DNA from: a virus
Virus record (IMG/VR): IMGVR_UViG_3300032304_001768
Location: 18,327-82,326 of that record
Length of the DNA stretch: 64,000 nt
Strand: one strand, 5' to 3'
In this document: positions 5,584 through 56,643 of the stretch, piece after piece
Layout: each line of letters starts with the position of its first letter
How positions within the stretch are numbered: the first letter of the stretch is position 1
Notes under the pieces: generated by a model
Told to the model about the DNA's origin: nothing
Database searches by the model: none
What the model saw: only the letters and a program-made list of their open reading frames with translations
Translations under genes and position numbers: made by a program

Positions 5584-5844
5584 GTGAAGATAGAAATAGT
5601 AACAATCAACGACGAGTCATTCAAGCTTAATGTGGCGCAATTCGGAACACACTTTGTAGCCACAGATGGTGAACGAGTGTGTATAGGTTCTACGGAAACA
5701 GACGCTATTTCAGGCGTTGCTGAAATGATTGAAATTGCAGAAAATGTAGTGGTCAACAATCCACCTGCCGAAAGACAAAAAATCCCGGCCCCTATCGAAA
5801 ACAATAAAGGCGCGGGATGGTTTGCTGGAACTAGCTGGGGTTAA
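5584..5844 (+). CDS. hypothetical protein
   Basis: GTG start after promoter. Confidence 0.5.
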   Translation: MKIEIVTINDESFKLNVAQFGTHFVATDGERVCIGSTETDAISGVAEMIEIAENVVVNNPPAERQKIPAPIENNKGAGWFAGTSWG

Positions 5845-6581
5845 ACTCCCAAGACTTGAGTGATGTGTTTCAGTAGCGGACTACGAACAACGTCATCAGC
5901 GTCAAATTTAACACAATGGATGTTATTTTTTCTGGAATGTTCCGTGTCAAATAAAGAGTGAACCTTTTCAAATCCAGAATCTTTGATATCGGCCTGTCTA
6001 GCATCTCCACAAACGATATACTTGGTGTTTCGTCCGAAGCGGGTAAGAATAGTGGCTAGTTCGCTTTTGCTCATATTTTGAGCTTCGTCAATAATCACAA
6101 AAGAATTGTGGAATGTAAGACCTCTTACGAAGTTTACAGGAACTGCCTTGATGTAATTGTTGTTCATCAATTGACCACACATCGCGTCATCAACGATTTC
6201 ATGCAACTTATCCATCAATGGCATGGTATATGGACCAAATTTCTCGTCCAATTCACCGGGCAAAGCTCCAATACTTCGGGATGAGCTTTCAACAACGGAT
6301 CGAATGTAAATGATTTGGTCAACTTTACCTTCTTTCAAATGCTCCATCGCAGCATAAACAGAGAGATAGGTTTTGTTGGTTCCCGCCAATCCATCAATAA
6401 ATACCATGTTAGTATTTTGATTGTTGATTGTGTAATAACACTGTTTTTGATTTGGTGTCAACGGGAATTGTTTTTTTAATTTCATGTTATCCAAATTGAA
6501 ATTTTTCTTATAGGCATCTATAAAATCAATTTCAATTTCATCAATTTCTTTACGCTTGCGCGTAGAACGTTTTGTGCTCAT
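5841..6581 (-). CDS. phoH: PhoH-like ATPase
   Basis: GLAGTNKTY, GALPG, FVRGLTF, IIDEAQN, ILTRFG, GDARQAD, DVVRS motifs. Confidence 0.92.
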   Translation of the reverse strand: MSTKRSTRKRKEIDEIEIDFIDAYKKNFNLDNMKLKKQFPLTPNQKQCYYTINNQNTNMVFIDGLAGTNKTYLSVYAAMEHLKEGKVDQIIYIRSVVESSSRSIGALPGELDEKFGPYTMPLMDKLHEIVDDAMCGQLMNNNYIKAVPVNFVRGLTFHNSFVIIDEAQNMSKSELATILTRFGRNTKYIVCGDARQADIKDSGFEKVHSLFDTEHSRKNNIHCVKFDADDVVRSPLLKHITQVLGV

Positions 6582-43827: not shown

Positions 43828-43861
43828 AGCGGATAGAACAAGATGGTTAGTTGTCAGTTTC
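43828..43861 (+). pseudogene. degenerate 5' half of a tRNA (Met-like)
   Basis: AGCGGATAGAACAAGATGGTTAGTTGTCAGTTTC resembles a tRNA-Met 5' half; breaks near the anticodon loop. Confidence 0.35.
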
Positions 43862-43886
43862 TGCTGCTAGTGTAAATAACATCAGA

Positions 43887-44429
43887 ATGAAATACACAAT
43901 TTATAAGATTACTAATAATCTCAATGGTAAGTTTTACATCGGTAAACACCAAACAACAAATCCAAATGATACGTATTTTGGATCAGGAAAAGCGATTATC
44001 AATGCTATTAAATTTTACGGTAAGTCAAACTTCACGAAAGAGGTGTTGTTCATTTTCGATTCTGAGTTTGAGATGAACGCTAAAGAAAAAGAACTCATTA
44101 CTGAGGAATTTGTGGCAATGCCAGATACTTACAATCTTGGAATTGGTGGTGAAGGTGGTGCGCATTTTAAAGGTAGACGACATTCTTTAAAAACTAAAGA
44201 GAAAATTTCTGTATCGAATACAGGAAAGTCTCTTTCAGAAGAAAGTAGGCAAAAATCTATTGGGAGAAAACATTCAATAATCACAAAACAAAAAATTTCA
44301 CTTGCTGCAAAATCAAGGAAAGTTTCTGACGAAACAAAACAGAAGATTTCCAAAGCTTTGAAAGGTAGAAAAGTCTCAACAGAGACTAAAGAAAAAATTT
44401 CCAATACGATGAAAGCTCGTAATAAATAA
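43887..44429 (+). CDS. GIY-YIG homing endonuclease with NUMOD3 repeats
   Basis: TIYKITN..NGKFYIGKH, YFGSG, YNL..GG.GG, HS..TK.KIS repeats. Confidence 0.9.
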   Translation: MKYTIYKITNNLNGKFYIGKHQTTNPNDTYFGSGKAIINAIKFYGKSNFTKEVLFIFDSEFEMNAKEKELITEEFVAMPDTYNLGIGGEGGAHFKGRRHSLKTKEKISVSNTGKSLSEESRQKSIGRKHSIITKQKISLAAKSRKVSDETKQKISKALKGRKVSTETKEKISNTMKARNK

Positions 44430-44435
44430 TTCAAA

Positions 44436-44529
44436 AGCAGGGTAGAGAAGATCGGTCGATCTCGCTTGGCTCATAACCAAGAGGCTACTCAAACGCGCAT
44501 AAGTGGTTCGAATCCCGCCCCTGCAACCA
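44436..44529 (+). tRNA. tRNA-Met(CAT), atypical
   Basis: A1:A72 mismatch, CTTGG-CTCATAA-CCAAG, ~20-nt variable region, imperfect T stem, CCA. Confidence 0.65.
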
Positions 44530-44856: not shown

Positions 44857-44941
44857 GGGTAGATGGGTGAACGGTTAAACCAGCTGATTGTAAATCAGCC
44901 CCTTTATTGGATTGTAGGTTCGAATCCTACTCTGCCCACCA
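44857..44941 (+). tRNA. tRNA-Tyr(GTA)
   Basis: Cloverleaf with long variable arm, CCA. Confidence 0.92.
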
Positions 44942-44942
44942 A

Positions 44943-45036
44943 ATAGTTGCATGGAACTAAACAATAAGGCCAATGGTAGATCTGGACTCTAATATAGATC
45001 CGTGTTCTTTGTAGGTTCGAGTCCTACTGTGACTAT
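44943..45036 (+). ncRNA. tRNA-like RNA with CTA-containing loop
   Basis: Acceptor AGTTGCA/TGTGACT, canonical T arm, GATCT/AGATC hairpin with loop GGACTCTAATAT; no CCA. Confidence 0.5.
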
Positions 45037-45121
45037 GATATTGTCGCGTTGATCGGTGACTGATTTGGAATAAGCAGGAGTAAGTCCAAAGAGAATGATG
45101 ATAAATCCTGCACAATTTATT

Positions 45122-45213
45122 GGAAGTATGGCAGAGCGGTCTATTGCACTATCTTGGAAAGATAGAGGTCGCCAAATGGTGGCCCATAGGTTCAAATCCT
45201 ATTACTTCCGCCA
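45122..45213 (+). tRNA. tRNA-Ser(GGA)
   Basis: Class II cloverleaf, G73, CCA. Confidence 0.92.
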
Positions 45214-45221
45214 GTTTTAAT

Positions 45222-45299
45222 GGGGCTGTATCGGAACTGCCTTCTAAGCAGTGGCACCGTAAAGGATCGATGCAGGTTCGAATCCTGCCAGCCCTGCCA
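45222..45299 (+). tRNA. non-canonical D-armless tRNA-Arg(TCT)
   Basis: 7-bp acceptor, ACTGC-CTTCTAA-GCAGT, T arm, GCCA; no D arm. Confidence 0.7.
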
Positions 45300-45302
45300 T
45301 TT

Positions 45303-45454
45303 TTCTCGTTTGGGCGCGTAACGACAAGATACGTTGGAGATGGCTCATGCCAGAGTCTCTGCAAGAGAGAATAATCAATAGAATAGGCGCGGGCATTAAG
45401 CGCAATAAAAATAATTATTAATCAAAGCAGCGTAGCAAAGCTTGTTAACGAGAA
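45303..45454 (+). ncRNA. unknown structured RNA (~150 nt)
   Basis: Nested helices TTCTCGTT/AACGAGAA, ACAAG/CTTGT, TACGTTG/CAGCGTA plus internal hairpins. Confidence 0.5.
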
Positions 45455-45463
45455 TCATTTTAT

Positions 45464-45555
45464 GGGTGTGTGGTCGAGTCTGGTTTATGGCGTCGCACTT
45501 GAAATGCGAAGGTGGTGAAAGCTGCCCGTGGGTTCAAATCCTACCGCACCCGCCA
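45464..45555 (+). tRNA. tRNA-Ser(TGA)
   Basis: Class II cloverleaf, CCA. Confidence 0.92.
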
Positions 45556-45563
45556 AATTTAAT

Positions 45564-45640
45564 CCCTGTCTGGTGTAAGTGGTCTGCACGATTCGCTGAA
45601 GACGAGTAGGATACCTGATCGAAACGGGTGACAGGGGCCA
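45564..45640 (+). tRNA. tRNA-Phe(GAA)
   Basis: Cloverleaf; atypical T loop ATCGAAA; CCA. Confidence 0.8.
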
Positions 45641-45647
45641 TTTTAAT

Positions 45648-45735
45648 TGGGGTGAAGTCTAATGGTTTGACACCAGCCTTTGAAGCTGGCAGTAGCGAAA
45701 GCTCAATGTGGGTTCGAATCCCACTACCCCTGCCA
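45648..45735 (+). tRNA. tRNA-Gln(TTG) with long variable arm
   Basis: CCAGC-CTTTGAA-GCTGG, AGC-GAAA-GCT variable hairpin, GCCA. Confidence 0.82.
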
Positions 45736-45740
45736 ATTTT

Positions 45741-45814
45741 GGATCTGAAACATTAAGGTGATGTAACGGTCTTTTAAACCGTAGAATTGGGATCATTCCC
45801 CAACAGGTCCACCA
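45741..45814 (+). tRNA. tRNA-Lys(TTT)
   Basis: Cloverleaf; atypical T loop ATCATTC; CCA. Confidence 0.82.
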
Positions 45815-45822
45815 ATTTCAAC

Positions 45823-45850
45823 TTGACAAATCAAAACCCTCTGATACAAT
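45823..45850 (+). promoter_or_regulatory. sigma70-type promoter
   Basis: TTGACA-N16-TACAAT with TGn extension. Confidence 0.7.
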
Positions 45851-45876
45851 CAACACATATCAAAAAGTCATAAAAA

Positions 45877-46071
45877 ATGATAACCCAATTAAATCCAACA
45901 ATCCCATTGAAAACACCGAAAGGTAAAGGATTCGCTCATTTAGTCATAGACTATTCCCAAGAGCATGATTTAATGTGGGTGGTATTTCTTGATGAAACTG
46001 GAGAATGTTGGACCTTTAAAAATAGTGAAGTGAGAATGGTAGAGAATGTATCTTTAGATAGAATGAAATAA
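45877..46071 (+). CDS. small conserved phage protein
   Basis: QLNP.IP..TPKG.G.A..VIDYS.EH.L.WVVF.D.TGECWT. Confidence 0.7.
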   Translation: MITQLNPTIPLKTPKGKGFAHLVIDYSQEHDLMWVVFLDETGECWTFKNSEVRMVENVSLDRMK

Positions 46072-46143
46072 CTTATGAAAGTTAGGATTTTGCAAAAATC
46101 CAATAGATTCTTCTATGTAGAAGAATTTAGAGATCTTTCAAAT

Positions 46144-46219
46144 TCCCAAGTAGCACAGCGGTAGTTGCGACTGGCTGTTAACCAGTATGTCGGTGGTTCG
46201 ATCCCACCCTTGGGAGCCA
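46144..46219 (+). tRNA. tRNA-Asn(GTT)
   Basis: Cloverleaf, CCA. Confidence 0.92.
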
Positions 46220-46227
46220 AATATAAA

Positions 46228-46301
46228 GGCCCGGTAGTTTAATGGCAAAACAGTAGATTTGTAACCTTCAGACGAGAGTTCGATTCTCTCTCGGGCCTCC
46301 A
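46228..46301 (+). tRNA. tRNA-Thr(TGT)
   Basis: Cloverleaf with weak anticodon stem, CCA. Confidence 0.75.
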
Positions 46302-46311
46302 TTATTTATAT

Positions 46312-46390
46312 CCTCCTATAGCTCAGTTTTGGTTAGAGCACTCGTTTGATAAATGAGAGGTCGTTGGTTCAAGTCCAACTGGGAGGACCA
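46312..46390 (+). tRNA. tRNA-Ile(GAT)
   Basis: Cloverleaf, CCA. Confidence 0.9.
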
Positions 46391-46393
46391 CTT

Positions 46394-46720
46394 ATGACAT
46401 TAAATGAATATCAAGAAGCTGCGATTGAAACTGCCATATATGGCGAAGGCCAATTAATAATTTATCCAACTTTGGGTTTGACTGGTGAAGCTGGTGAAGT
46501 TGCGGATAAAGTTAAAAAGGTTTTGAGAGATTATGATGGTGTTTTTACCGATGCCATTAAGCTAGAAATTGCTAAAGAAGTCAGTGACGTATTGTGGTAT
46601 TTGGCGGCTCTGAGTAGAGATTTGGGTTATTCTTTGGAAGATATTGGTCAAATCAATCTCAATAAATTAGCAGATCGACAACAACGTGGAGTTATTTCTG
46701 GTTCTGGTGATAATAGGTAA
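46394..46720 (+). CDS. MazG-like NTP pyrophosphohydrolase
   Basis: LGLTGEAGEVADKVKK, KEVSDVLWYLA, NL.KL..R..RG.I.GSGDNR. Confidence 0.88.
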   Translation: MTLNEYQEAAIETAIYGEGQLIIYPTLGLTGEAGEVADKVKKVLRDYDGVFTDAIKLEIAKEVSDVLWYLAALSRDLGYSLEDIGQINLNKLADRQQRGVISGSGDNR

Positions 46721-46761
46721 AATAATTGGAGATTTTATTTGGTATCCAACTAAATAATAGT

Positions 46762-47424
46762 ATGGATACCTTAGAAAAAATATCAAAAGAAGATGCGAAG
46801 ATATTAAAGCAAAAATGGTATTTTACTGGATTGGAATGTTCAAATGGCCACTTAGATAAAAGATATACAAACACAGGCATATGTTATGGGTGTAAGCGTT
46901 CACAGAATAACAGATCTAATGCAAAAAATCCAGAAACTTTAAAAGTTATAAGCTCAAGAACTTATCAAAAAAATAAAGAATCTAAATTGGAACAATCTAA
47001 AAGATGGGCACAACGGAACAGAGAAAAATCTAATGCTATTAAATCTAAATGGAAACAAGTTCATAGAGAGCAACATTTGGAACAAGCAAAGAAATATTCC
47101 AAAAATCAAAGAAAAGATCCGTTCAAACGAATTAGTAAAAATATGAGTAAAGCTATATGGCAATCTTTAAAAGGAAAAAAAGGAGGTTCCCATTGGCTAT
47201 CATTTGTGGATTTTACAATTGAAGAATTAACAATTCATTTAGAAAGTAAATTCAAAGAAGGTATGACTTGGGAAAACTATGGCAAATATTGGCATGTTGA
47301 CCATATCAGACCGCTTAGTTGGTTTAATTTAGAACTTGAATTTAAAGATGCATGGTGTTTGGGAAATCTTCAACCATTAGAAGCAGTTTTAAATTTGAGA
47401 AAAAATAATAGATACGAAGGTTGA
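46762..47424 (+). CDS. HNH endonuclease
   Basis: YFTG.EC..GH...C..C; GMTWENYG..WHVDHIRP, NLQPL...NLRK. Confidence 0.8.
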   Translation: MDTLEKISKEDAKILKQKWYFTGLECSNGHLDKRYTNTGICYGCKRSQNNRSNAKNPETLKVISSRTYQKNKESKLEQSKRWAQRNREKSNAIKSKWKQVHREQHLEQAKKYSKNQRKDPFKRISKNMSKAIWQSLKGKKGGSHWLSFVDFTIEELTIHLESKFKEGMTWENYGKYWHVDHIRPLSWFNLELEFKDAWCLGNLQPLEAVLNLRKNNRYEG

Positions 47425-47431
47425 TATTTAA

Positions 47432-47506
47432 GCAGGCATCGTATAATGGTTATTACATAACATTGCCAATGTTAATATGCGGATTCGATTTCCGCTGCCT
47501 GCTCCA
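47432..47506 (+). tRNA. tRNA-Gly(GCC)
   Basis: Cloverleaf, U73, CCA. Confidence 0.9.
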
Positions 47507-47517
47507 TTTGATTTAAT

Positions 47518-47593
47518 CAGGGTATAGCGTAATGGCATCGCGCTTGGTTTGGGACCAAGAGATCTGTAGGTTCGAGTCCTACTATCCTGACCA
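47518..47593 (+). tRNA. tRNA-Pro(TGG)
   Basis: Cloverleaf, CCA. Confidence 0.9.
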
Positions 47594-47598
47594 TTTAT

Positions 47599-47676
47599 CT
47601 ACTGCTGGCATTGATATGGTAAGGCGCTTGATTTGGGATCAAGAGTATGTCGGTTCGAATCCGACGCAGTAGACCA
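47599..47676 (+). tRNA. tRNA-Pro(TGG)
   Basis: Cloverleaf with weak D stem, CCA. Confidence 0.8.
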
Positions 47677-47681
47677 TTTAT

Positions 47682-47927
47682 ATGAAAATTGCATTTAGAA
47701 GTTCATTATCAAGACTGGACATGGAATATGATTCAGATAATTTTGACAATTTTGAAGAGAAGTGTTTCTGGCAAGCATTAAAAGTGGAGTATTGGAAGGA
47801 GTTGTTTGAAAATTGCGGTAATGTTCATCCATTTCGATCCGCGTTTGCTCAACGGTTTTCTTTGGAAAAAAGAAAGTTTGAAACATTAATTCAAGCGAAT
47901 AAGTATTTTAATACTAAACTGAAATAA
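47682..47927 (+). CDS. hypothetical protein
   Basis: 81-aa ORF between the repeats. Confidence 0.45.
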   Translation: MKIAFRSSLSRLDMEYDSDNFDNFEEKCFWQALKVEYWKELFENCGNVHPFRSAFAQRFSLEKRKFETLIQANKYFNTKLK

Positions 47928-47942
47928 GAATTTATATACCTA

Positions 47943-48015
47943 GCGTTAACTTAAAACGATACTGATGAAAGCCGTGCTTCGACATCAGAGAGTGACGGCG
48001 GGAGAGAACGCGCCA
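47943..48015 (+). ncRNA. pseudoknotted small RNA ending in GCCA
   Basis: GCGTT/AACGC closing stem; CTGATG/CATCAG and GCCGT/ACGGC crossing helices. Confidence 0.45.
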
Positions 48016-48024
48016 ATTTCATAA

Positions 48025-48099
48025 CAGGGTGTGGCTTGACAGGGAAGCGCTTAGTTTGGGGCTAAGATCATGGAGGTTCGAATCCTCTCATCCTGACCA
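48025..48099 (+). tRNA. tRNA-Pro(TGG)
   Basis: Cloverleaf, CCA. Confidence 0.85.
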
Positions 48100-48104
48100 T
48101 TTAT

Positions 48105-48182
48105 CTACTGCTGGCATTGATATGGTAAGGCGCTTGATTTGGGATCAAGAGTATGTTGGTTCGAATCCGACGCAGTAGACCA
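48105..48182 (+). tRNA. tRNA-Pro(TGG), duplicate
   Basis: Near-identical copy of 47599-47676. Confidence 0.8.
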
Positions 48183-48187
48183 CTAAC

Positions 48188-48263
48188 AGAGGCGTAGCTC
48201 AATCGGGAGAGCGGAAGATTGTCAATCTTCAGGCAGCGGGATCGAAACCCGTCGTCTCTGCCA
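48188..48263 (+). tRNA. tRNA-Asp(GTC)
   Basis: Cloverleaf, G73, CCA. Confidence 0.88.
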
Positions 48264-48269
48264 TTTTAT

Positions 48270-48349
48270 GGGGCATGGGACTGCATGGCGTGGTCGTCTC
48301 ACTTGCAATGAGAAAATGCAGATCGGTTCGATTCCGATATGCTCCACCA
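48270..48349 (+). tRNA. tRNA-Ala(TGC)
   Basis: G3:U70, A73, CCA. Confidence 0.88.
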
Positions 48350-48358
48350 TTTAATAAC

Positions 48359-48418
48359 ACAGTATTCGTCTAATGGCTTAAGACTACTCCCTCCAAAAGA
48401 GAAAACGTGGGTTCGAAT
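48359..48418 (+). pseudogene. truncated tRNA-Trp(CCA)
   Basis: D arm, CT-CCA-AA loop and GTGGGTTCGAAT present; 3' T-stem and acceptor strand missing at the HNH gene boundary. Confidence 0.7.
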
Positions 48419-48439
48419 ATCATTTATGTAAATACTTTC

Positions 48440-49138
48440 ATGGACTACAAAACTATATATGACAATTTAATTAAACATAGACAGGAACATCCAGCTGAAG
48501 GATATACCGAACAGCATCATATAGTCATGCGCAGTATGGGCGGAAGTAATGAATCATCAAATCTTGTTTCTTTAACTGGTCGCGAACATTGGATTGCTCA
48601 TTTACTCTTATACAAGATTCATCGAAATAAGTTATCAGCCTATGCTTGCCATATGATGGCAATGAAATGTGAAAAACGTGGCATACCACATGTTCGTAAT
48701 TCTCGAATGTATGAAAAAATAAGAATATTATGTTCTAAACATATTGGTATAAATAATACACATACTCAAACAGGGGTGAAAAATTCTCAATACGGAACGC
48801 GGTGGATATGCAATATTCTTTTGCAGCAAAATCAAAAAATTTCTAAAGATGTGGAATTACCTGATGGATGGATCGTCGGTCGAAATAAATGGATAGATCA
48901 TAGCGTAACGCTTAGTTGTGTGACATGTAAATCAACATTCAAAACGTTGAATGTGAGATCTAAATATTGTTCGCGAACGTGTTATCCACCTCGCAAGCCC
49001 ATGAAAGTCTCTTACGAGACCAGACAAAAAATGTCTATCATTAAGAAAGAATTATATAAAGATCCAACACGTAATCCAAATTACGGAAAATTTAAAAATA
49101 AAAAAACACAGTTGCAGCAAGTGGCGGTTGCAGAATGA
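48440..49138 (+). CDS. HNH homing endonuclease
   Basis: YTEQHHIV.RSMGGSN...NLV.LTGREHWIAHLLL, NSQYGT.WI; 3' end overlaps tRNA-Trp. Confidence 0.88.
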   Translation: MDYKTIYDNLIKHRQEHPAEGYTEQHHIVMRSMGGSNESSNLVSLTGREHWIAHLLLYKIHRNKLSAYACHMMAMKCEKRGIPHVRNSRMYEKIRILCSKHIGINNTHTQTGVKNSQYGTRWICNILLQQNQKISKDVELPDGWIVGRNKWIDHSVTLSCVTCKSTFKTLNVRSKYCSRTCYPPRKPMKVSYETRQKMSIIKKELYKDPTRNPNYGKFKNKKTQLQQVAVAE

Positions 49139-49185
49139 CTCCAAATCATTTGTTTTAGCGAGTTCGATCCTCGCCAACTGTGCCA
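49108..49185 (+). tRNA. tRNA-Trp(CCA)
   Basis: Cloverleaf, G73, CCA; begins inside the HNH ORF. Confidence 0.82.
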
Positions 49186-49198
49186 CTTTTTTAATAAT

Positions 49199-49272
49199 GG
49201 CGTGTTGTCAGATCGGTTATGTAGGGCACTGCAAATGCTCGTAGGTAGGTTCGACTCCTACACATGCCTCCA
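49199..49272 (+). tRNA. tRNA-Cys(GCA)
   Basis: Cloverleaf, U73, CCA. Confidence 0.88.
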
Positions 49273-49282
49273 TTTTAAAAAC

Positions 49283-49357
49283 GGGGAATTAGCTGAGTGG
49301 TAAAGCGGCTCTTTTACACGGAGTAGATCGGGGGTTCGATTCCCTCATTCCCTACCA
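49283..49357 (+). tRNA. tRNA-Val(TAC)
   Basis: Cloverleaf, CCA. Confidence 0.9.
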
Positions 49358-49481
49358 TTTAAGTTTATATCGGCATGTGGAGAAATTGGCAGTCTCGGCA
49401 GACTTTAAAGTTTAAATTTATCCTCATGTAGCAATCTAGTTGAGGGGTTGACAAACAATTCCTATGCTACTAAATAATAAC

Positions 49482-50276
49482 ATGTCTGCAAAATTAAGAA
49501 AGTATACCAAAGAATTTTTAGAACCTAAAGTTAAAGAAGTCACATCAATGACTGCTTTAATAGAAAGCATAGGGCTTAAACTTACTGGAGGCAGTTATCG
49601 ACTGTTAAAACAAAGAATAAATCAACATGGAATATCCATAGATCATTTTATTGGACATGGTTGGTCGAAAGGATTAACTAAAGAAACATCAGATACATTA
49701 AATAAAAATTCTCTTAAAACGAGGACGCCCCATGAAAAAGTTTTTTGTATAAATTCCGGGTTTAATTCTAGTAAATTAAAATATAGATTATTAGATCTTG
49801 GTTGGGAAGACAAATGCAATATTTGTGGATTGAAGGACTGGCTAGGTAATCCTATTACTTTACATGTTGATCATATAAATGGAATATCCGGAGATAATAG
49901 ATTGGAAAATTTGCAAATAATTTGTCCCAACTGCCATCAACAAACAGAAACATGGGGTAATAAAAAAGACAAGGGGAGTATGGTGAAATTGCTAAACACG
50001 CCAGACTTAGGATCTGGTGCCGAAGGGCTTGTCGGTTGGAGTCTGACTACTCCCACCAAAAAATGTATAGACTGTGATAAAAAATGCTCTTGTAATGCTA
50101 CAAGATGTAAATCTTGCGAAGCTATTAGAAAAAACAATAATATAAAAAAAAGAGTTTCTAAAGAACAATTAATTTTAGATTTAAAAGATTTAAAAACATA
50201 TGTTGAAATATCTAAAAAATATAATGTATCTGATGTATCCATTAAAAAATGGTGTAAATTTTATAATCTAGTTTAA
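49482..50276 (+). CDS. HNH homing endonuclease inside the tRNA-Leu insert
   Basis: C..CG..DW...ITLHVDHING...DNRLENL.IICPNCH; C-terminal Cys cluster and HTH. Confidence 0.9.
   Translation: MSAKLRKYTKEFLEPKVKEVTSMTALIESIGLKLTGGSYRLLKQRINQHGISIDHFIGHGWSKGLTKETSDTLNKNSLKTRTPHEKVFCINSGFNSSKLKYRLLDLGWEDKCNICGLKDWLGNPITLHVDHINGISGDNRLENLQIICPNCHQQTETWGNKKDKGSMVKLLNTPDLGSGAEGLVGWSLTTPTKKCIDCDKKCSCNATRCKSCEAIRKNNNIKKRVSKEQLILDLKDLKTYVEISKKYNVSDVSIKKWCKFYNLV
49974..50058 (+). tRNA. tRNA-Leu(TAG) embedded in frame within the HNH CDS
   Basis: GGGAGTA/TACTCCC, CCAGA-CTTAGGA-TCTGG, variable arm, ACCA; compensatory C19:G56. Confidence 0.85.
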
Positions 50277-50349
50277 ACAAAAGAATCTGTTGCTTAATCG
50301 CGTGTGGGTTCGAGTCCCACCATGCCGACCATTTAGATTAAATAGTTTT

Positions 50350-51155
50350 ATGTTAAACTTTAAACAATTCTTCTTCGAACGTGCATTCCACGGTTCACCA
50401 AACGAGGTGGCTGGAGATTTCAATCTGGATTATATTGGAACTGGCGAAGGTGGACAAGCTTTTGGTTGGGGATTGTATTTTGCAGAAAACCCTAAAGTTG
50501 CTGAAACGTATAAAAATTTACATCCATACTCTCAGAGAGAAGTTCGATACAAAGGAAAAACTCCGAGAGAATGGGAAGATGTTAGTGATGGAACGAGCAA
50601 TATGTTTGGGAGAAGATTAGACTGAATGTTTCAAAAGAAGATTTATTAAATTATCCATTGTCCAAACAACAGCTTGATTTGGTGAAATCACTTCCTGATG
50701 AATTGTTTCATAAAGGTAATATGTATGAAGTTAACATTGATGCATCCATAGATGATTTCATTCATTACGATGGATCAGAATCTGAATATGATCCAATCTT
50801 AAAAAAGATCAATGATGGAATCAAAAGATTCTATCATTATGATGAAGGTAATTATTTTCAAGGAACATACGATGGAAAATCCATTTATCCAAAGGTGTGT
50901 AAAGTGGTTGCAGATTTTGAAAATAATTTAGAACAGTTTGGATCACAACCCACCAAAAATGAACAGATATTAGGAAGTAAATTCCTAGCAAAAGTGGGAG
51001 TCAAAGGAATTCGATATTTAGATGAGCTATCCAGATCATCTGGACAAGGCACTTATAACTATGTTATATTTGATCCATCTATTATTAAAATAGTGAAAAC
51101 GAACGGTCAGTTTGTGATGCCTTCCAAGAAACCAGAATCTGTCGAAATCGATTGA
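50350..51155 (+). pseudogene. ADP-ribosyltransferase-like protein, frameshifted near 50588
   Basis: FHGS...GTGEG.QAFGWGLYFAE in one frame; YEV.I and G..GIRYLD...NYVIFD in the other frame, open from 50589. Confidence 0.65.
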
Positions 51156-51228
51156 CAAATCGAAATCGTGTGTTACTCTAAACACGTAATTGGCCATGTG
51201 GCGGATGAAAATTGAAAAATCAAGAAAA

Positions 51229-51306
51229 GGTTGCGTAGTCCAACGGGTAGGAGACAAGAAACTTAAAATTTCTACAGTATGGGTTCGAATCCCATCGCAA
51301 CTACCA
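51229..51306 (+). tRNA. tRNA-Leu(TAA) with short variable loop
   Basis: AGAAA-CTTAAAA-TTTCT, 5-nt variable loop, CCA. Confidence 0.85.
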
Positions 51307-51309
51307 AAT

Positions 51310-51385
51310 GGTGATATAGCTCAATGGTTAGAGCGTCCACCTCATAAGTGGAGGGTTATGGGTTCGAGTCCCATTATTACCACCA
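51310..51385 (+). tRNA. tRNA(CAT) Met or Ile2
   Basis: Cloverleaf, CCA. Confidence 0.88.
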
Positions 51386-51397
51386 TTTTTTAATACC

Positions 51398-51604
51398 ATG
51401 AAAAACATACAATATTATTATGTTGCTTGCGAAGCAACAGATGAACAGAAAGTAAATGCAGAATTTAAACATTATTTCAGATTGTATAAATTTGATGGTG
51501 TTGCTCCTATCCTTGTGGAGCAGGGTGTTGATTTAGTTCCTGTATGGGAAACTAAGTATAATGCTACATTTAATCAAATTAATCCTTATCCACATCTTGA
51601 TTGA
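51398..51604 (+). CDS. hypothetical protein
   Basis: 68-aa ORF filling the gap between tRNAs. Confidence 0.5.
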   Translation: MKNIQYYYVACEATDEQKVNAEFKHYFRLYKFDGVAPILVEQGVDLVPVWETKYNATFNQINPYPHLD

Positions 51605-51611
51605 TAAAAAC

Positions 51612-51691
51612 GCAGTTGTATACCCTTGCGCTACGAACGCATAGAAAGGTTAATCGGATACATGTAGGTTCAATTCCTATCAACTGTGCCA
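51612..51691 (+). tRNA. non-canonical D-armless tRNA-Arg(ACG)
   Basis: GCAGTTG/CAACTGT, TGCG-CTACGAA-CGCA, T arm, GCCA; no D arm. Confidence 0.7.
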
Positions 51692-51696
51692 TTTAT

Positions 51697-51780
51697 GGGG
51701 AAATGGTGGAATGGTATACACGGTAATCTCAAAAATTGTTGCTTAACAGCATGCGGGTTCGAGTCCCGCTTTCCCCACCA
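51697..51780 (+). tRNA. tRNA-Leu(CAA)
   Basis: Class II cloverleaf, CCA. Confidence 0.9.
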
Positions 51781-51782
51781 AT

Positions 51783-51895
51783 GGGCATGACATGGAGTAG
51801 ATGAGGGTTCGATTCCCTCACGGTCCACACTCTAAAAACGGGCCGATTGGTAGTGGCGCGACGGCACTCTTCGGGTTCGAGTCCCGACATGTCCA
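51783..51895 (+). ncRNA. two-headed tRNA-Ala/tmRNA-TLD-like RNA
   Basis: Two T arms; cross-paired acceptor stems GGGCATG/CATGTCC and GGGCCG/CGGTCC, both with G3:U70 and A73. Confidence 0.65.
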
Positions 51896-51913
51896 CAAAC
51901 TTTAAAAAAGACC

Positions 51914-51941
51914 TTGACTTCCTCGAAAGAGGTGTTACAAT
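51914..51941 (+). promoter_or_regulatory. sigma70-type promoter
   Basis: TTGACT-N16-TACAAT with TGn. Confidence 0.6.
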
Positions 51942-52020
51942 CAAGGCATCAAAACAACTTGAGTTTGAAAGAACCAAGGATCGCTAAATAAAAACAGGAG
52001 GGTGAAAGTCCCTCTGCAAC

Positions 52021-52095
52021 GCGCTTATGATGTCAACGGTAGCATGGCAGATTTCCAATCTGAGTGTCAGGATTCGAATTCCTGTGGGCGCACCA
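52021..52095 (+). tRNA. tRNA-Gly(TCC)
   Basis: Cloverleaf, A73, CCA. Confidence 0.85.
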
Positions 52096-54298: not shown

Positions 54299-54344
54299 TT
54301 TTCAGGGTTGACAAACTGGATTCATGTGGTTAAATAGACCCGAT

Positions 54345-54734
54345 ATGAAGACATTACTGACAACAGCGCTACTTCTTATTTTCTCGGTCAGCTGCTCCGC
54401 TGTAAAGCCAATCAGCGTTCCGATGAAATCAAGCAAACCAACTCAAGTTCAAACCGGAAAAGCGTCGTGGTATTCCACTCTCTGCAACAGAGGAAGCAAG
54501 ACAGCGAGCGGTGAACGTTTGAACAACAATAGCTCAACAGCTGCCCACAAAACACTTCCAATGGGAACAAAGGTAAAAGTTACCAATGTTCGTAATGGTA
54601 AAAGTGAGATTGTTAAAATCTCTGACAGAGGACCGTATGTTAAGGGTCGTGTCATTGATGTGACAGTCGGTGTTGCATCTCGCCTCGGATTCAAATCTCA
54701 AGGCGTTACTGAGGTTAGAGTAGAAGTTCTATAA
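54345..54734 (+). CDS. RlpA-like lytic transglycosylase lipoprotein
   Basis: Lipobox VSC; GKASWY, TASGE, TAAHKTLPMGT.V.VTN, DRGPYVKGRVID. Confidence 0.88.
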   Translation: MKTLLTTALLLIFSVSCSAVKPISVPMKSSKPTQVQTGKASWYSTLCNRGSKTASGERLNNNSSTAAHKTLPMGTKVKVTNVRNGKSEIVKISDRGPYVKGRVIDVTVGVASRLGFKSQGVTEVRVEVL

Positions 54735-54742
54735 TAAAACAT

Positions 54743-55432
54743 ATGGCAACACAAGATAATCTAGGTGATAGATGTAAAAAATACGAAAGCACATTCGAGA
54801 ATTATTTTCTCCGCAAGACTCCGATCATTGTTCGGGTGGATGGAAAAGGCTTTAGTAAATGGACAAAGGGTTGCGCCCGTCCATACGATCAATCACTCAT
54901 CGATACCATGTTCAAATCAGCGAAAGAAGTTGCTGCCGAAATGCAAGGATGTAAAGCTTTGTATGCACAGAGCGATGAAGTCACATTCCTACTTCTTGAT
55001 GATGGGGATGAAACCACCCAGCAATGGTTTGGTGGTCGCCAGAATAAAATCGAAAGCATCACATCAGCTATGATGACTGCATTCTTTAATAAGAATTGGA
55101 TTGCTGAAAATCCAACTTCCAATAAGAAGCCAGCTATCTTTGATGCCAGATCATTTCAATGTCCTCGGGAAGATGTAAGCAATGTTTTCTTGTGGCGAGC
55201 TAAAGATTGGCAACGAAACAGTCTCAATATGTATTGCATGCAACACTTCTCTCATAAAGAACTGCAAGGCAAGAATCGTTTTGACAGAGTTGACATGCTC
55301 GCGAAACTTGGAAAGAATTGGGAAGCGGATGTGACTCCGCAGCAACGATTCGGATCTTTCTGGACATTAACAGGTGATCACTTGAATGTTGATCCTACTT
55401 ATGACAATATCAATTTTATAATTTTCTCATGA
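54743..55432 (+). CDS. tRNA(His) guanylyltransferase, Thg1-like
   Basis: VRVDGKGFS, YAQSDEVT, WFGGR..KI.S, FDAR, FLWR..D..RNS. Confidence 0.9.
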   Translation: MATQDNLGDRCKKYESTFENYFLRKTPIIVRVDGKGFSKWTKGCARPYDQSLIDTMFKSAKEVAAEMQGCKALYAQSDEVTFLLLDDGDETTQQWFGGRQNKIESITSAMMTAFFNKNWIAENPTSNKKPAIFDARSFQCPREDVSNVFLWRAKDWQRNSLNMYCMQHFSHKELQGKNRFDRVDMLAKLGKNWEADVTPQQRFGSFWTLTGDHLNVDPTYDNINFIIFS

Positions 55433-55492: not shown

Positions 55493-56009
55493 ATGGCTAA
55501 TATAAAAAGAATAACATACACATGTCCCTTGTGTGAAAAATTACAAGAAACCACGCAATATCGCTTCGATAGAAAAAAAAACTGCGTTTTGTAAAAACTG
55601 TGTAACTATAGGGACTCAAAAAGGAATTAAAAAACCTTTTATAACAGGTGAAAAAAGTGGAAGATGGAAAGGCTGCGAATATATTTCATCTGATGGATAT
55701 AAAATGGTTAAGTGTGATAATCAATTTCATCCATCTGGAAGATTAAAATATAAAAAAGAACACATTCTTATTTTAGAAAATGAATTAGGCCGAGAAATAA
55801 AAACTCAACAGGGAAATATGGGAGAACAAGTCCATCATGTTGACGGTGATAAATTAAATAATAACTTAGAAAATTTAGTTTTATGCTCCGATACAAGAGA
55901 GCATAGGCTCATTCATTGCCAATTAGAAGAAGTTTCTTTTGAATTGGTAAGGTTGGGGGTTATTTCCTTCGATAAAGAAACAAAACAATATAAAATAAAT
56001 GCAAGTTGA
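55493..56009 (+). pseudogene. HNH endonuclease interrupted by a frameshift at an A9 run
   Basis: CPLC in the ATG-55493 frame; CKNC and VHHVDGDKLNN..ENL in the +1 frame. Confidence 0.65.
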
Positions 56010-56643
56010 ACTATTAAATCATTTTGGAAGCGATCTAACCATCGCTAATATCGCCCGCGTGTCTTATGACAAAGAATCATCAGAATTTGGAGACAAAGAT
56101 GCGAAACTGTTAAAATTTCTGGCCGAACATAAACATACATCACCTTTTAGACACGCTCAATTACAATTTAGAATAGAATGTCCTGTTTTTGTAGAACGTC
56201 AACTATTCACTCATCAAATTGGATGGGCAAGAAATTCTATTTCTGGAAGATATGTTGATTTCTCAGACTCTTATTGGCTTCCCAATCAATTACGTTATCA
56301 GTCAAAAGACAGCAAACAAGGAAGTTCAGGCGATGTCGAATCAATATTAAATGATGAGTTATTAGAAGAAATGCGAGCCGTTGTGTCTCATGCACAAGAA
56401 GTTTATTCCAAAATGTGTAATGCTGGAGTGTCTAAAGAACAATGTCGTATTATTTTACCATTGGCATTAGAAACAAAATTCATTTGGACTGGTAGTATGC
56501 ATGCTTTTATGCATTTATGTCAACTTCGTTTGAAAGCAGATACTCAAAAAGAAACAAGAGATATTGTATCTGAAATGTTGGAATTGGTAAAGAACATCGA
56601 AGGCAATCCTTTCGAACACACTTTAAAAGCTTGGGGATACTAA
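55999..56643 (+). CDS. thyX: flavin-dependent thymidylate synthase
   Basis: ARVSY, HTSPF, FVERQL..H, NSISGRY, R.ILP, LR....Q.E.R. Confidence 0.92.
   Translation: MQVELLNHFGSDLTIANIARVSYDKESSEFGDKDAKLLKFLAEHKHTSPFRHAQLQFRIECPVFVERQLFTHQIGWARNSISGRYVDFSDSYWLPNQLRYQSKDSKQGSSGDVESILNDELLEEMRAVVSHAQEVYSKMCNAGVSKEQCRIILPLALETKFIWTGSMHAFMHLCQLRLKADTQKETRDIVSEMLELVKNIEGNPFEHTLKAWGY

Follow-up and report, generated by a model that had tools for sequence, protein, structure and literature searches.

Two phage genes for candidate arginine tRNAs with a rewired core

The cluster of transfer RNA (tRNA) genes in the virus record IMGVR_UViG_3300032304_001768 (IMG/VR) raises the question of which of its genes, if any, serves arginine. 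The stretch analysed here (the window) comprises 64,000 nucleotides (nt), bases 18327-82326 of the 82,326-base record, which was rated 39% complete as a whole by CheckV. The window has a G+C content of 36% and codes for a portal protein, a major head protein, a helicase, a ribonucleotide reductase and a virion protein; the portal, major head and other phage proteins point to a large tailed phage. ARAGORN placed 28 tRNA genes at 43.7-54.3 kb of the window, all on the + strand, and none of its calls in the window was for arginine or lay at 45222-45299 or 51612-51691. These are the two intervals in which a first reading of the bare sequence (the original prediction) had located D-armless arginine tRNA genes with the anticodons UCU and ACG, and its coordinates proved exact. 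Conventional-looking genes for all 19 other amino acids were present in the cluster when the ARAGORN calls were combined with a tRNA-Gly(UCC) gene that ARAGORN missed and Rfam added (48.3 bits), so that arginine was the slot left over, as had been claimed.

The two genes very probably encode functional elongator tRNA-Arg belonging to a widespread, mainly phage-borne family with a rewired core. They represent a new structural variant of tRNA, one surprising to tRNA specialists.

Core architecture of the two genes and their homologues

In both genes the acceptor stem has 7 base pairs (bp) and begins with G1-U72, the anticodon loop measures 7 nt, the 5-bp T stem closes a TTCRANY loop, and GCCA is encoded at the 3' end (Table 1), in line with the original description, which had also noted the missing D arm. 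The gap between acceptor and anticodon stems is only 7 nt in both, leaving no D hairpin: pairing of the type 10-13/22-25 was absent between the two stems, and RNAalifold predicted no D helix. The anticodon and T arms are separated by 19 nt in the UCU gene and by 21-22 nt in the ACG gene. When aligned to the Rfam tRNA model RF00005, the 13 or 15 D-arm positions were reduced to 2 or 4 nt and 16 or 18 nt were inserted in the variable region; under this model the UCU gene scored above and the ACG gene below the gathering cut-off of 29 bits.

Homologues were difficult to collect by similarity. Megablast of window positions 45000-52000 against cultured phages gave no match, blastn-short of both genes against the first 80 related loci gave T-arm matches only, and a MAFFT alignment of the two window genes alone was not usable. 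BLAST is weak here because the stems of the family diverge too fast, and descriptor and pattern searches were therefore used. A descriptor scan of 80 loci, fetched via the neighbouring virion protein, yielded one homologue (in locus L006), in which all three stems were altered by compensatory substitutions whereas no change had occurred in the 7-nt linker or in the ACCGUAAAGGAUC stretch. Pattern scans of IMG/VR returned 14, 42 and 118 loci; 146 of 163 pattern matches passed the stem checks, 119 of them distinct, and a 7-nt linker fitted best in all but one of these 119. Scans that left the base after GG free returned 75 loci for GAU, at least 119 for UCU and 102 for ACG. Altogether, at least 264 distinct sequences in at least 322 loci fitted the layout, as judged by pattern scans of viral contigs and a descriptor script, and CCA was encoded in 148 of the 264.

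A covariance model (R1) was built from alignment A2, which holds 133 homologues including both window genes; a further alignment (A3) that mixed in canonical tRNAs was excluded from the counts. Clear members scored 61-92 bits in R1, canonical tRNAs of the same loci at most 36.4 bits, and four variant or damaged matches 45-52 bits. The scores of the two window genes (Table 1) are partly high by construction, because both belong to the training set. Both nevertheless fit the layout of the family, with a 7-nt linker starting in UA, a short helix formed by bases 11-13 and, between this helix and the T arm, a UAA-N1-2-GG-N motif.

The three classical helices are well supported across the 133 homologues. 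The acceptor helix was 99.2% paired, with changes on both sides in 7 of 7 pairs; the anticodon stem was 89.4% paired (5 of 5 pairs changed on both sides) and the T stem 99.2% (3 of 5), so that 15 of 17 pairs in total were altered on both sides. These were the only helices returned by RNAalifold. The top position of the anticodon stem, 15:31, was unpaired in 62 of 133 members. As a separate observation, the G1-U72 wobble atop the acceptor stem recurred in 45 of the 133 members, both window genes included.

A fourth, short helix joins bases 11-13 to the 3 nt directly before a conserved UAA. Its three pairs were formed in 133, 133 and 108 of 133 homologues and in 264, 264 and 221 of the larger set of 264, and each pair occurred there in all four Watson-Crick types. 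Between the two window genes all three pairs are changed with pairing kept (CGG/CCG at 45232-45234/45257-45259; ACC/GGU, or ACC/GGT in DNA, at 51622-51624/51648-51650), and other members showed CUC/GAG, GCC/GGC, CCC/GGG, CAC/GUG, CAG/CUG, AAC/GUU and GGC/GCC. With the register anchored on UAA, a sequence landmark independent of the helix, 93.7% of cells were paired in the 133 sequences, compared with a mean of 46% and a maximum of 52.9% in 1000 shuffles and with 21-43% in registers slid by 1-3 nt. Minimum free energy (MFE) structures computed with ViennaRNA for both window genes also held this helix, the presence of which was the sole use made of single-sequence folding, as it mis-drew the anticodon stem of the UCU gene.

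The original prediction had drawn another partner for the linker: bases 8-13 were to pair with the segment directly 5' of the T arm, leaving the purine-rich stretch after the anticodon arm as an unpaired loop. Each window gene can indeed form such a helix (ATCGG/TCGAT; TAT-CC/GGATA), and of 133 homologues, 132 pair the outer cell A9-U and 112 the outer cell U10-A. These two well-paired cells are, however, invariant letters partly fixed by the search pattern, and the helix as a whole was 63.6% paired, against about 99% for real helices. Its three informative inner pairs were unpaired in 90, 66 and 64 of 133 homologues, most UCU homologues reading UCAAU, which creates a C-A mismatch; the register of the ACG gene paired in 64, 59 and 56 of 133 at the informative positions, and, counted from the conserved GGAU, the pairing is not in the same register in the two window genes. 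This pairing thus has very little probability, and covariation instead assigns bases 11-13 to the 3 nt before UAA.

The short helix is followed by the motif U-A-A-(1-2 nt)-G-G-N-N-..-A-U and then by the T stem; in the ACG gene the motif reads U AAUCGGAUA CAU. Its 9-nt core resembles the D loop of E. coli tRNA-Arg (A14 R15 Y16 Y17 G18 G19 A20 U A21). The earlier remark that the D loop seemed to have moved to the other side was borne out to the extent that a D-loop-like motif lies 3' of the anticodon arm. The strand before the motif runs toward it, like the 5' strand of the D stem in a normal tRNA, and bases 11-13 run from the acceptor side to the anticodon stem, like the 3' strand of the D stem. 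These directions give the order 1-9 / 22-43 / spacer / 10-21 / last variable-loop nucleotides (4x-48) / 49-76, in which segments 10-21 and 22-43 appear swapped relative to standard tRNA. The RNA would accordingly consist of U8-A9-Y10, a D-stem 3'-like strand, the anticodon arm, a spacer of 4-5 nt, a D-stem 5'-like strand, the D-loop-like motif UAA-N1-2-GG-A-N, a few nucleotides and the T arm. The resulting fold is a three-way junction in which the anticodon helix is continued, beyond an internal loop of 1 x 4-5 nt, by the D-stem-like helix. A hairpin of the pre-motif strand with the last nucleotides before the T arm was also considered and rejected, its pairing being inconsistent across classes. 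Variants of G15 were too few among the homologues for Levitt-type 15:48 covariation.

Known departures from the usual tRNA gene do not describe this arrangement. In contrast to a class II variable arm, the extra region showed no self-contained helix in MFE folding or RNAalifold, its 5' part pairs with bases 11-13, and the D arm is absent as well. In permuted tRNA genes the 3' half is encoded upstream of the 5' half; here the acceptor 5' strand comes first, its 3' strand and CCA come last, and only inner segments are swapped. A D-armless tRNA of the mitochondrial type would not carry the conserved D-loop-like motif that sits 3' of the anticodon arm.

Arginine identity, codon demand and selection

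The base that follows GG in the motif changed with the anticodon. It was A in all 223 distinct arginine members (UCU 137, ACG 80, UCG 4, CCU 2), and in 101 of 101 arginine members seen only in loci fetched with that base free; the discriminator of arginine members was G, A or U. Members with isoleucine and valine anticodons also exist, so the family is not arginine-specific, and in these the base was U in 41 of 41 (Ile GAU 35, UAU 5; Val UAC 1), or 37 of 37 in free-base loci, with discriminator A in 41 of 41. According to excerpts of PMC9976931, bacterial arginine identity lies in A20, C35, U/G36 and A/G73 (U73 is also given), A20 being the main determinant for the E. coli arginyl-tRNA synthetase (ArgRS), and bacterial isoleucine identity elements include U20, U21 and A73. 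Both window genes read GGA (45264-45266 and 51656-51658), and their anticodons UCU and ACG provide C35 and U/G36.

The A after GG would then be the spatial equivalent of A20. As the base after GG tracks the anticodon in the way identity rules predict, the motif would do the work of a D loop, offering position 20 to the synthetase, and this coupling is the strongest argument for the predicted charging of the rewired tRNAs. The RNA would still adopt the L shape of tRNA, its GG docked against the T loop, and A20 and C35 would let the host ArgRS charge it. The UCU tRNA would decode AGA and AGG, and the ACG tRNA, presumably as ICG, would decode CGU, CGC and CGA; A34 of the ACG gene presumably implies inosine formation by TadA, an enzyme that acts on the anticodon arm. 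Such tRNAs would supply the dominant arginine codons of the phage during infection. In 23 long open reading frames (ORFs) of the window, the 389 arginine codons were AGA (47.6%), CGT (23.1%), CGA (13.1%) and CGC (9.0%), followed by AGG (3.9%) and CGG (3.3%), and UCU plus ICG would read 92.8% of them, or 96.7% including AGG.

No canonical tRNA-Arg was found in the window by ARAGORN or in the 82,326-base record by Rfam, the search elsewhere that had been proposed with the original prediction; all 27 Rfam tRNA matches of the full record fell inside this cluster. In the fetched loci, a rewired gene was accompanied by a canonical one of identical anticodon in 2 of 100 ACG, 4 of 175 UCU and 11 of 63 GAU instances, and in 2 of 69 instances where the locus had at least 15 ARAGORN tRNAs; these figures are lower bounds, as the fetched loci are fragments.

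Instead of decoding, the rewired RNAs could regulate or act as tRNA-like decoys, for instance by sequestering a host anticodon nuclease, ArgRS or a modification enzyme. Some phages do hold a rewired and a canonical gene for one anticodon, as in the isoleucine genes of Streptomyces phage Jay2Jay, and the case for charging rests on sequence comparison. Against this stand the intact anticodon loops of the tRNA type CU-NNN-AA, the open 7-bp acceptor stem with discriminator and often encoded CCA, and the match of the anticodons to the main arginine codons of the phage. Position 20 and the discriminator moreover switch with the anticodon, as expected of substrates of synthetases of several identities, and in large arrays the member is usually the sole gene for its anticodon. 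A decoy role is thus judged improbable, and decoding by elongator tRNAs remains preferred.

Parts of the cluster were recovered in twelve public runs, one of them a metatranscriptome. The 272-nt contig from the metatranscriptome (run X11) covers 45189-45460 and shows 5 differences from the window, none of which is in the UCU gene; over 44937-45641, the DNA of a related strain (contig of run X5) shows 9 differences, again all outside that gene. This pattern is consistent with purifying selection on the UCU gene, to which the strain comparison is limited; the X5 piece that includes the ACG gene has 30 differences, of which 12 are listed. Homing endonucleases of the cluster could in principle have left decaying tRNA pseudogenes, given the GIY-YIG/NUMOD3 and HNH ORFs among the tRNAs and the variation of inter-tRNA ORFs between strains. 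The probability of this is practically negligible, for 264 distinct sequences share the layout, compensatory changes are seen in all four helices, and the UCU gene is free of differences in related strains while its flanks differ.

Several points weigh against reading the two genes as functional arginine tRNAs with a swapped core. With the record 39% complete, a canonical tRNA-Arg could lie in its unseen part. Jay2Jay has a canonical Ile(gat) gene besides its rewired Ile(GAU), together with canonical Ile(tat) and four canonical arginine genes, so members can be redundant. Shuffled sequences reached folding energies (MFE) as good as those of the window genes (z = -0.77 and 0.15). In the R1-fitted alignment only 71.6% pairing was seen for the helix of bases 11-13, since members with a 5-nt spacer are shifted there by one column; the third pair was non-standard in 43 of 264 members, and one class needs a bulge. 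The invariance of UAA, GG, AU-G...GUUC and the anticodon loop is partly by construction, as the fetch patterns fixed these elements. The isoleucine identity pair U12-A23, mapped to the swapped layout, was not enriched (13 of 35 isoleucine members). Finally, transcription is not proven by the metatranscriptome, as the runs are contigs that carry no information on RNA ends, strand or level, and DNA carry-over is possible.

On balance, the comparison brings together three classical helices, a 3-bp D-stem-like helix, a D-loop-like motif and the coupling of position 20 and discriminator to the anticodon, all of which favour the proposed tRNA structure. The idea of a functional alternative fold filling the arginine slot was therefore well supported by compensatory helices, identity coupling, the usual lack of a canonical gene of the same anticodon nearby and codon match, while its key helix had been drawn wrongly.

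Distribution of the family and the surrounding cluster

When both genes were compared by BLAST with 50,697 cultured-phage records, members were found in Streptomyces phages of about 130 kb, Stenotrophomonas phage SOVA965, Agrobacterium phage Atu_ph04 and the Pseudomonas phages ventosus, UAVern and Bitten. R1 confirmed UCU members in SOVA965 (80.6 bits; PP079418.1, 38979-39053), Atu_ph04 (81.4; NC_070890.1, about 112818-112893), the Streptomyces phage Mildred21 (70.7) and ventosus (66.8), and the GAU member of Jay2Jay (69.4). Current annotation rarely registers these genes: among the 59 GenBank matches listed, 55 had no annotation, 2 were labelled 'tRNA-OTHER' and 2 'tRNA-Leu', and ARAGORN calls overlapped 5 of 355 family instances.

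Among 185,579 prokaryote species, each represented by one genome, the UCU pattern occurred at only 18 loci, 16 of them confirmed by R1. Most of these loci were contigs of metagenome-assembled genomes (MAGs) with tRNA arrays, and the three isolates were Acidobacteriaceae bacterium KBS 96, Phyllobacterium salinisoli and Devosia riboflavina. The KBS 96 member sits in a stretch of 25 tRNAs beside canonical Arg cct/acg/ccg genes. At this locus (L269, KB906767.1), the 25 ARAGORN tRNAs occupy 8 kb of a 6.7-Mb scaffold and include one 4-base anticodon call, with the rewired Arg(UCU) at 5784-5858. On a Bacteroidota MAG contig (L252), which probably comes from a phage and was binned with the MAG, a dense array combines a rewired Arg(UCU) with a suppressor-type tRNA (tta) and one 4-base anticodon call. 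Lower R1 matches of 45-51 bits were noted at L126 (6288-6455), L135 (4778-4858) and L263 (2951-3039), and at least two of the lower matches are Arg(UCG) genes with an 8-nt linker and a 3' region that is both longer and different, possibly representing a second type of rewired layout.

Why the core should be rewired can be answered only tentatively, with neutral oddity, stability and escape from a nuclease as candidate reasons. In the case of escape, host defences or toxins directed at tRNAs, or a phage nuclease that breaks down host tRNAs, would recognise the canonical D arm or core and so might spare a rewired but decoding tRNA. Viral loci far outnumber others in the family (118 for the UCU pattern against the 18 prokaryote loci), and members occur in phages of several bacterial phyla, but such a bias is equally expected of any tRNA lineage that spreads in phage tRNA arrays. 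The known nucleases of tRNA-Arg, colicin D for example, attack the anticodon loop, which is canonical here. Escape is therefore considered rather unlikely as the explanation. In a broader and similarly doubtful form, the swapped scaffold might spread horizontally and work in bacterial cytosolic translation across several phyla, its cloverleaf broken but its L shape and synthetase identity nucleotides preserved, might be kept to evade host defence, turnover or the phage's own nuclease, and might be retargetable between arginine, isoleucine and valine; if so, retargeting would take a change of anticodon, position 20 and discriminator.

Table 1. Coordinates of the two candidate arginine tRNA genes, their parts and neighbouring features (window positions; R1, covariance model of the rewired family)
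Feature	Position	Strand	Sequence or pairing	Evidence or remark
UCU gene: putative tRNA-Arg(UCU), CCA encoded	45222-45299	+		RF00005 41.1 bits with D arm deleted; R1 83.6 bits
UCU gene, acceptor stem 5' strand	45222-45228	+	GGGGCUG	Pairs with 45289-45295 (CAGCCCU), G1-U72
UCU gene, 7-nt linker (bases 8-14)	45229-45235	+	UAUCGGA	U8 A9 U10, C11 G12 G13, A14
UCU gene, anticodon arm	45236-45252	+	ACUGC/GCAGU	Stem 45236-45240/45248-45252
UCU gene, anticodon loop	45241-45247	+	CUUCUAA	Anticodon TCT 45243-45245
UCU gene, 4-nt spacer and triplet	45253-45259	+	GGCA, then CCG (45257-45259)	CCG pairs with bases 11-13
UCU gene, D-loop-like connector	45260-45271	+	UAAAGGAUCGAU	GG 45264-45265; putative A20 equivalent 45266
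UCU gene, extra region between anticodon and T arms			GGCACCGUAAAGGAUCGAU	
UCU gene, T arm	45272-45288	+	GCAGG TTCGAAT CCTGC	T helix 99.2% paired in homologues
UCU gene, discriminator and CCA	45296; 45297-45299	+	G; CCA	Sequence
ACG gene: putative tRNA-Arg(ACG), CCA encoded	51612-51691	+		RF00005 27.1 bits with D arm deleted; R1 75.1 bits
ACG gene, acceptor strands	3' strand 51681-51687	+	5' GCAGUUG; 3' CAACUGU	
ACG gene, 7-nt linker	51619-51625	+	UAUACCC	U8 A9 U10, A11 C12 C13, C14
ACG gene, anticodon arm	51626-51642	+	UUGCG/CGCAU	4 bp plus U-U at top
ACG gene, anticodon loop	51631-51637	+	CUACGAA	Anticodon ACG 51633-51635
ACG gene, 5-nt spacer and triplet	51643-51650	+	AGAAA, then GGU (51648-51650)	GGU pairs with bases 11-13
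ACG gene, D-loop-like connector	51651-51663	+	UAAUCGGAUACAU	GG 51656-51657; putative A20 equivalent 51658
ACG gene, extra region between anticodon and T arms			AGAAAGGUUAAUCGGAUACAU	
ACG gene, T arm	51664-51680		GUAGG/UUCAAUU/CCUAU	Sequence
ACG gene, discriminator and CCA	51688 (discriminator)	+	G, then CCA (3' end GCCA)	Sequence
Homing-endonuclease-type ORF	43851-44429	+		NUMOD3 and weak GIY-YIG match
ARAGORN 'tRNA-Met'	44436-44529	+		94 nt; Rfam 32.5 bits
tRNA-Gln(UUG)	45648-45735	+		88 nt
Duplicated block, first copy	47518-47676	+		Two tRNA-Pro(UGG) genes
Duplicated block, second copy	48025-48182	+		Two tRNA-Pro(UGG) genes
HNH homing-endonuclease-type ORF	49464-50276	+		Overlaps ARAGORN tRNA-Leu(tag) 49974-50058
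tRNA-Gly(UCC)	52021-52092	+		Rfam
DPBB lytic transglycosylase domain protein	54324-54734			
Thg1-like protein	54743-55432	+		100.4 bits
ThyX	55999-56643			

Several other tRNA genes of the cluster are unusual in their own ways. The tRNA-Gly(UCC) gene has two G-U pairs in the acceptor stem and a mismatch at the top of the anticodon stem. An 18-nt extra region in tRNA-Gln(UUG) is able to form a GNRA-capped hairpin, a variable arm of a length that is unusual for glutamine. In each copy of the duplicated block the second tRNA-Pro(UGG) is divergent, with an odd D region (Rfam 35.9 and 33.1 bits), and contigs of related strains run directly from 47594 to 48184, hence without one tRNA-Pro(UGG) block.

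Related-strain contigs also skip the stretches 46717-47422, 48355-49105, 50335-51144 and 45303-45458, the RNA-library run being among those that skip 48355-49105. Three of these four strain-variable stretches between tRNAs each carry one ORF without a Pfam match, and the skipping indicates that inter-tRNA ORFs were gained or lost between strains. The two homing-endonuclease-type ORFs lie within the cluster, and the Thg1-like protein (tRNA-His guanylyltransferase family) is encoded just downstream of it, near the genes for ThyX and the DPBB domain protein. In related phages a transfer-messenger RNA (tmRNA) gene adjoins the virion protein gene (L006 11445-11838; L007/L008 12172-12565, - strand); no tmRNA gene was found at the corresponding place of the window.

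Relation to known tRNAs and significance

Canonical class I tRNA-Arg (RF00005; for example tct in the related locus L004 and tct/acg of Jay2Jay) is the natural system for comparison. Shared with it are the 7-bp acceptor, the 5-bp anticodon stem with CU-NNN-AA, the 5-bp T stem with TTCRANY, a discriminator A, G or U, the often encoded CCA, a total length of 75-77 nt and a D-loop-type sequence A-A-Y-Y-G-G-A-U-A with A at the equivalent of position 20. In contrast to canonical tRNA-Arg, the rewired family has no D hairpin, the strands of its short helix flank the anticodon arm, its D-loop-like motif takes the place of the variable loop, and a three-way junction replaces the four-way cloverleaf.

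Metazoan mitochondrial D-armless tRNAs such as mt-tRNA-Ser(AGY) (PMC11551756, PMC7609411) likewise have no D hairpin and a short connector between acceptor and anticodon. These are short and have lost the D loop, whereas the rewired family is of normal length and relocates the D-loop sequence, with GG and the position-20 base. In the excerpts of PMC11551756, a human D-armless mt-tRNA is described as Y-shaped with a reshaped T arm, and an engineered D-arm-less 'mini HisT' of 62 nt, with bases 11-25 removed, works in E. coli PURE translation and is unstable in vivo through PNPase unless pnp is mutated. Like the rewired family, 'mini HisT' has no D hairpin, and its reported use by a bacterial synthetase, EF-Tu and the ribosome shows that such a design is feasible; unlike this artificial RNA, the phage family is natural and has kept D-loop-like elements. 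The rewired genes also resemble those of prokaryote tRNA arrays, which Tran et al. treat as genomic units in the excerpts of PMC4758250, in that they occur in dense arrays, as in KBS 96.

No description of a D-armless or rewired tRNA design in phages or bacteria was found in full-text literature searches, with supplements and subscription journals outside their scope, and the review PMC7609411 mentions neither 'phage' nor 'viral'. The prevailing view, as given in the excerpts of PMC11551756, is that bacterial-type tRNAs are all cloverleaves and that arm-less tRNAs are mitochondrial only. The rewired family would be a natural counter-example that works with ordinary bacterial ribosomes and synthetases, and would mean that the tRNA core tolerates altered strand connectivity. 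Phage tRNA counts and gaps of the 'missing Arg' kind would then be annotation artefacts, and the rewired tRNA would offer a ready scaffold for orthogonal tRNA design. Since some members belong to phages in culture, with Streptomyces, Stenotrophomonas, Pseudomonas and Agrobacterium as hosts, the reason for carrying such odd tRNAs is open to direct testing.

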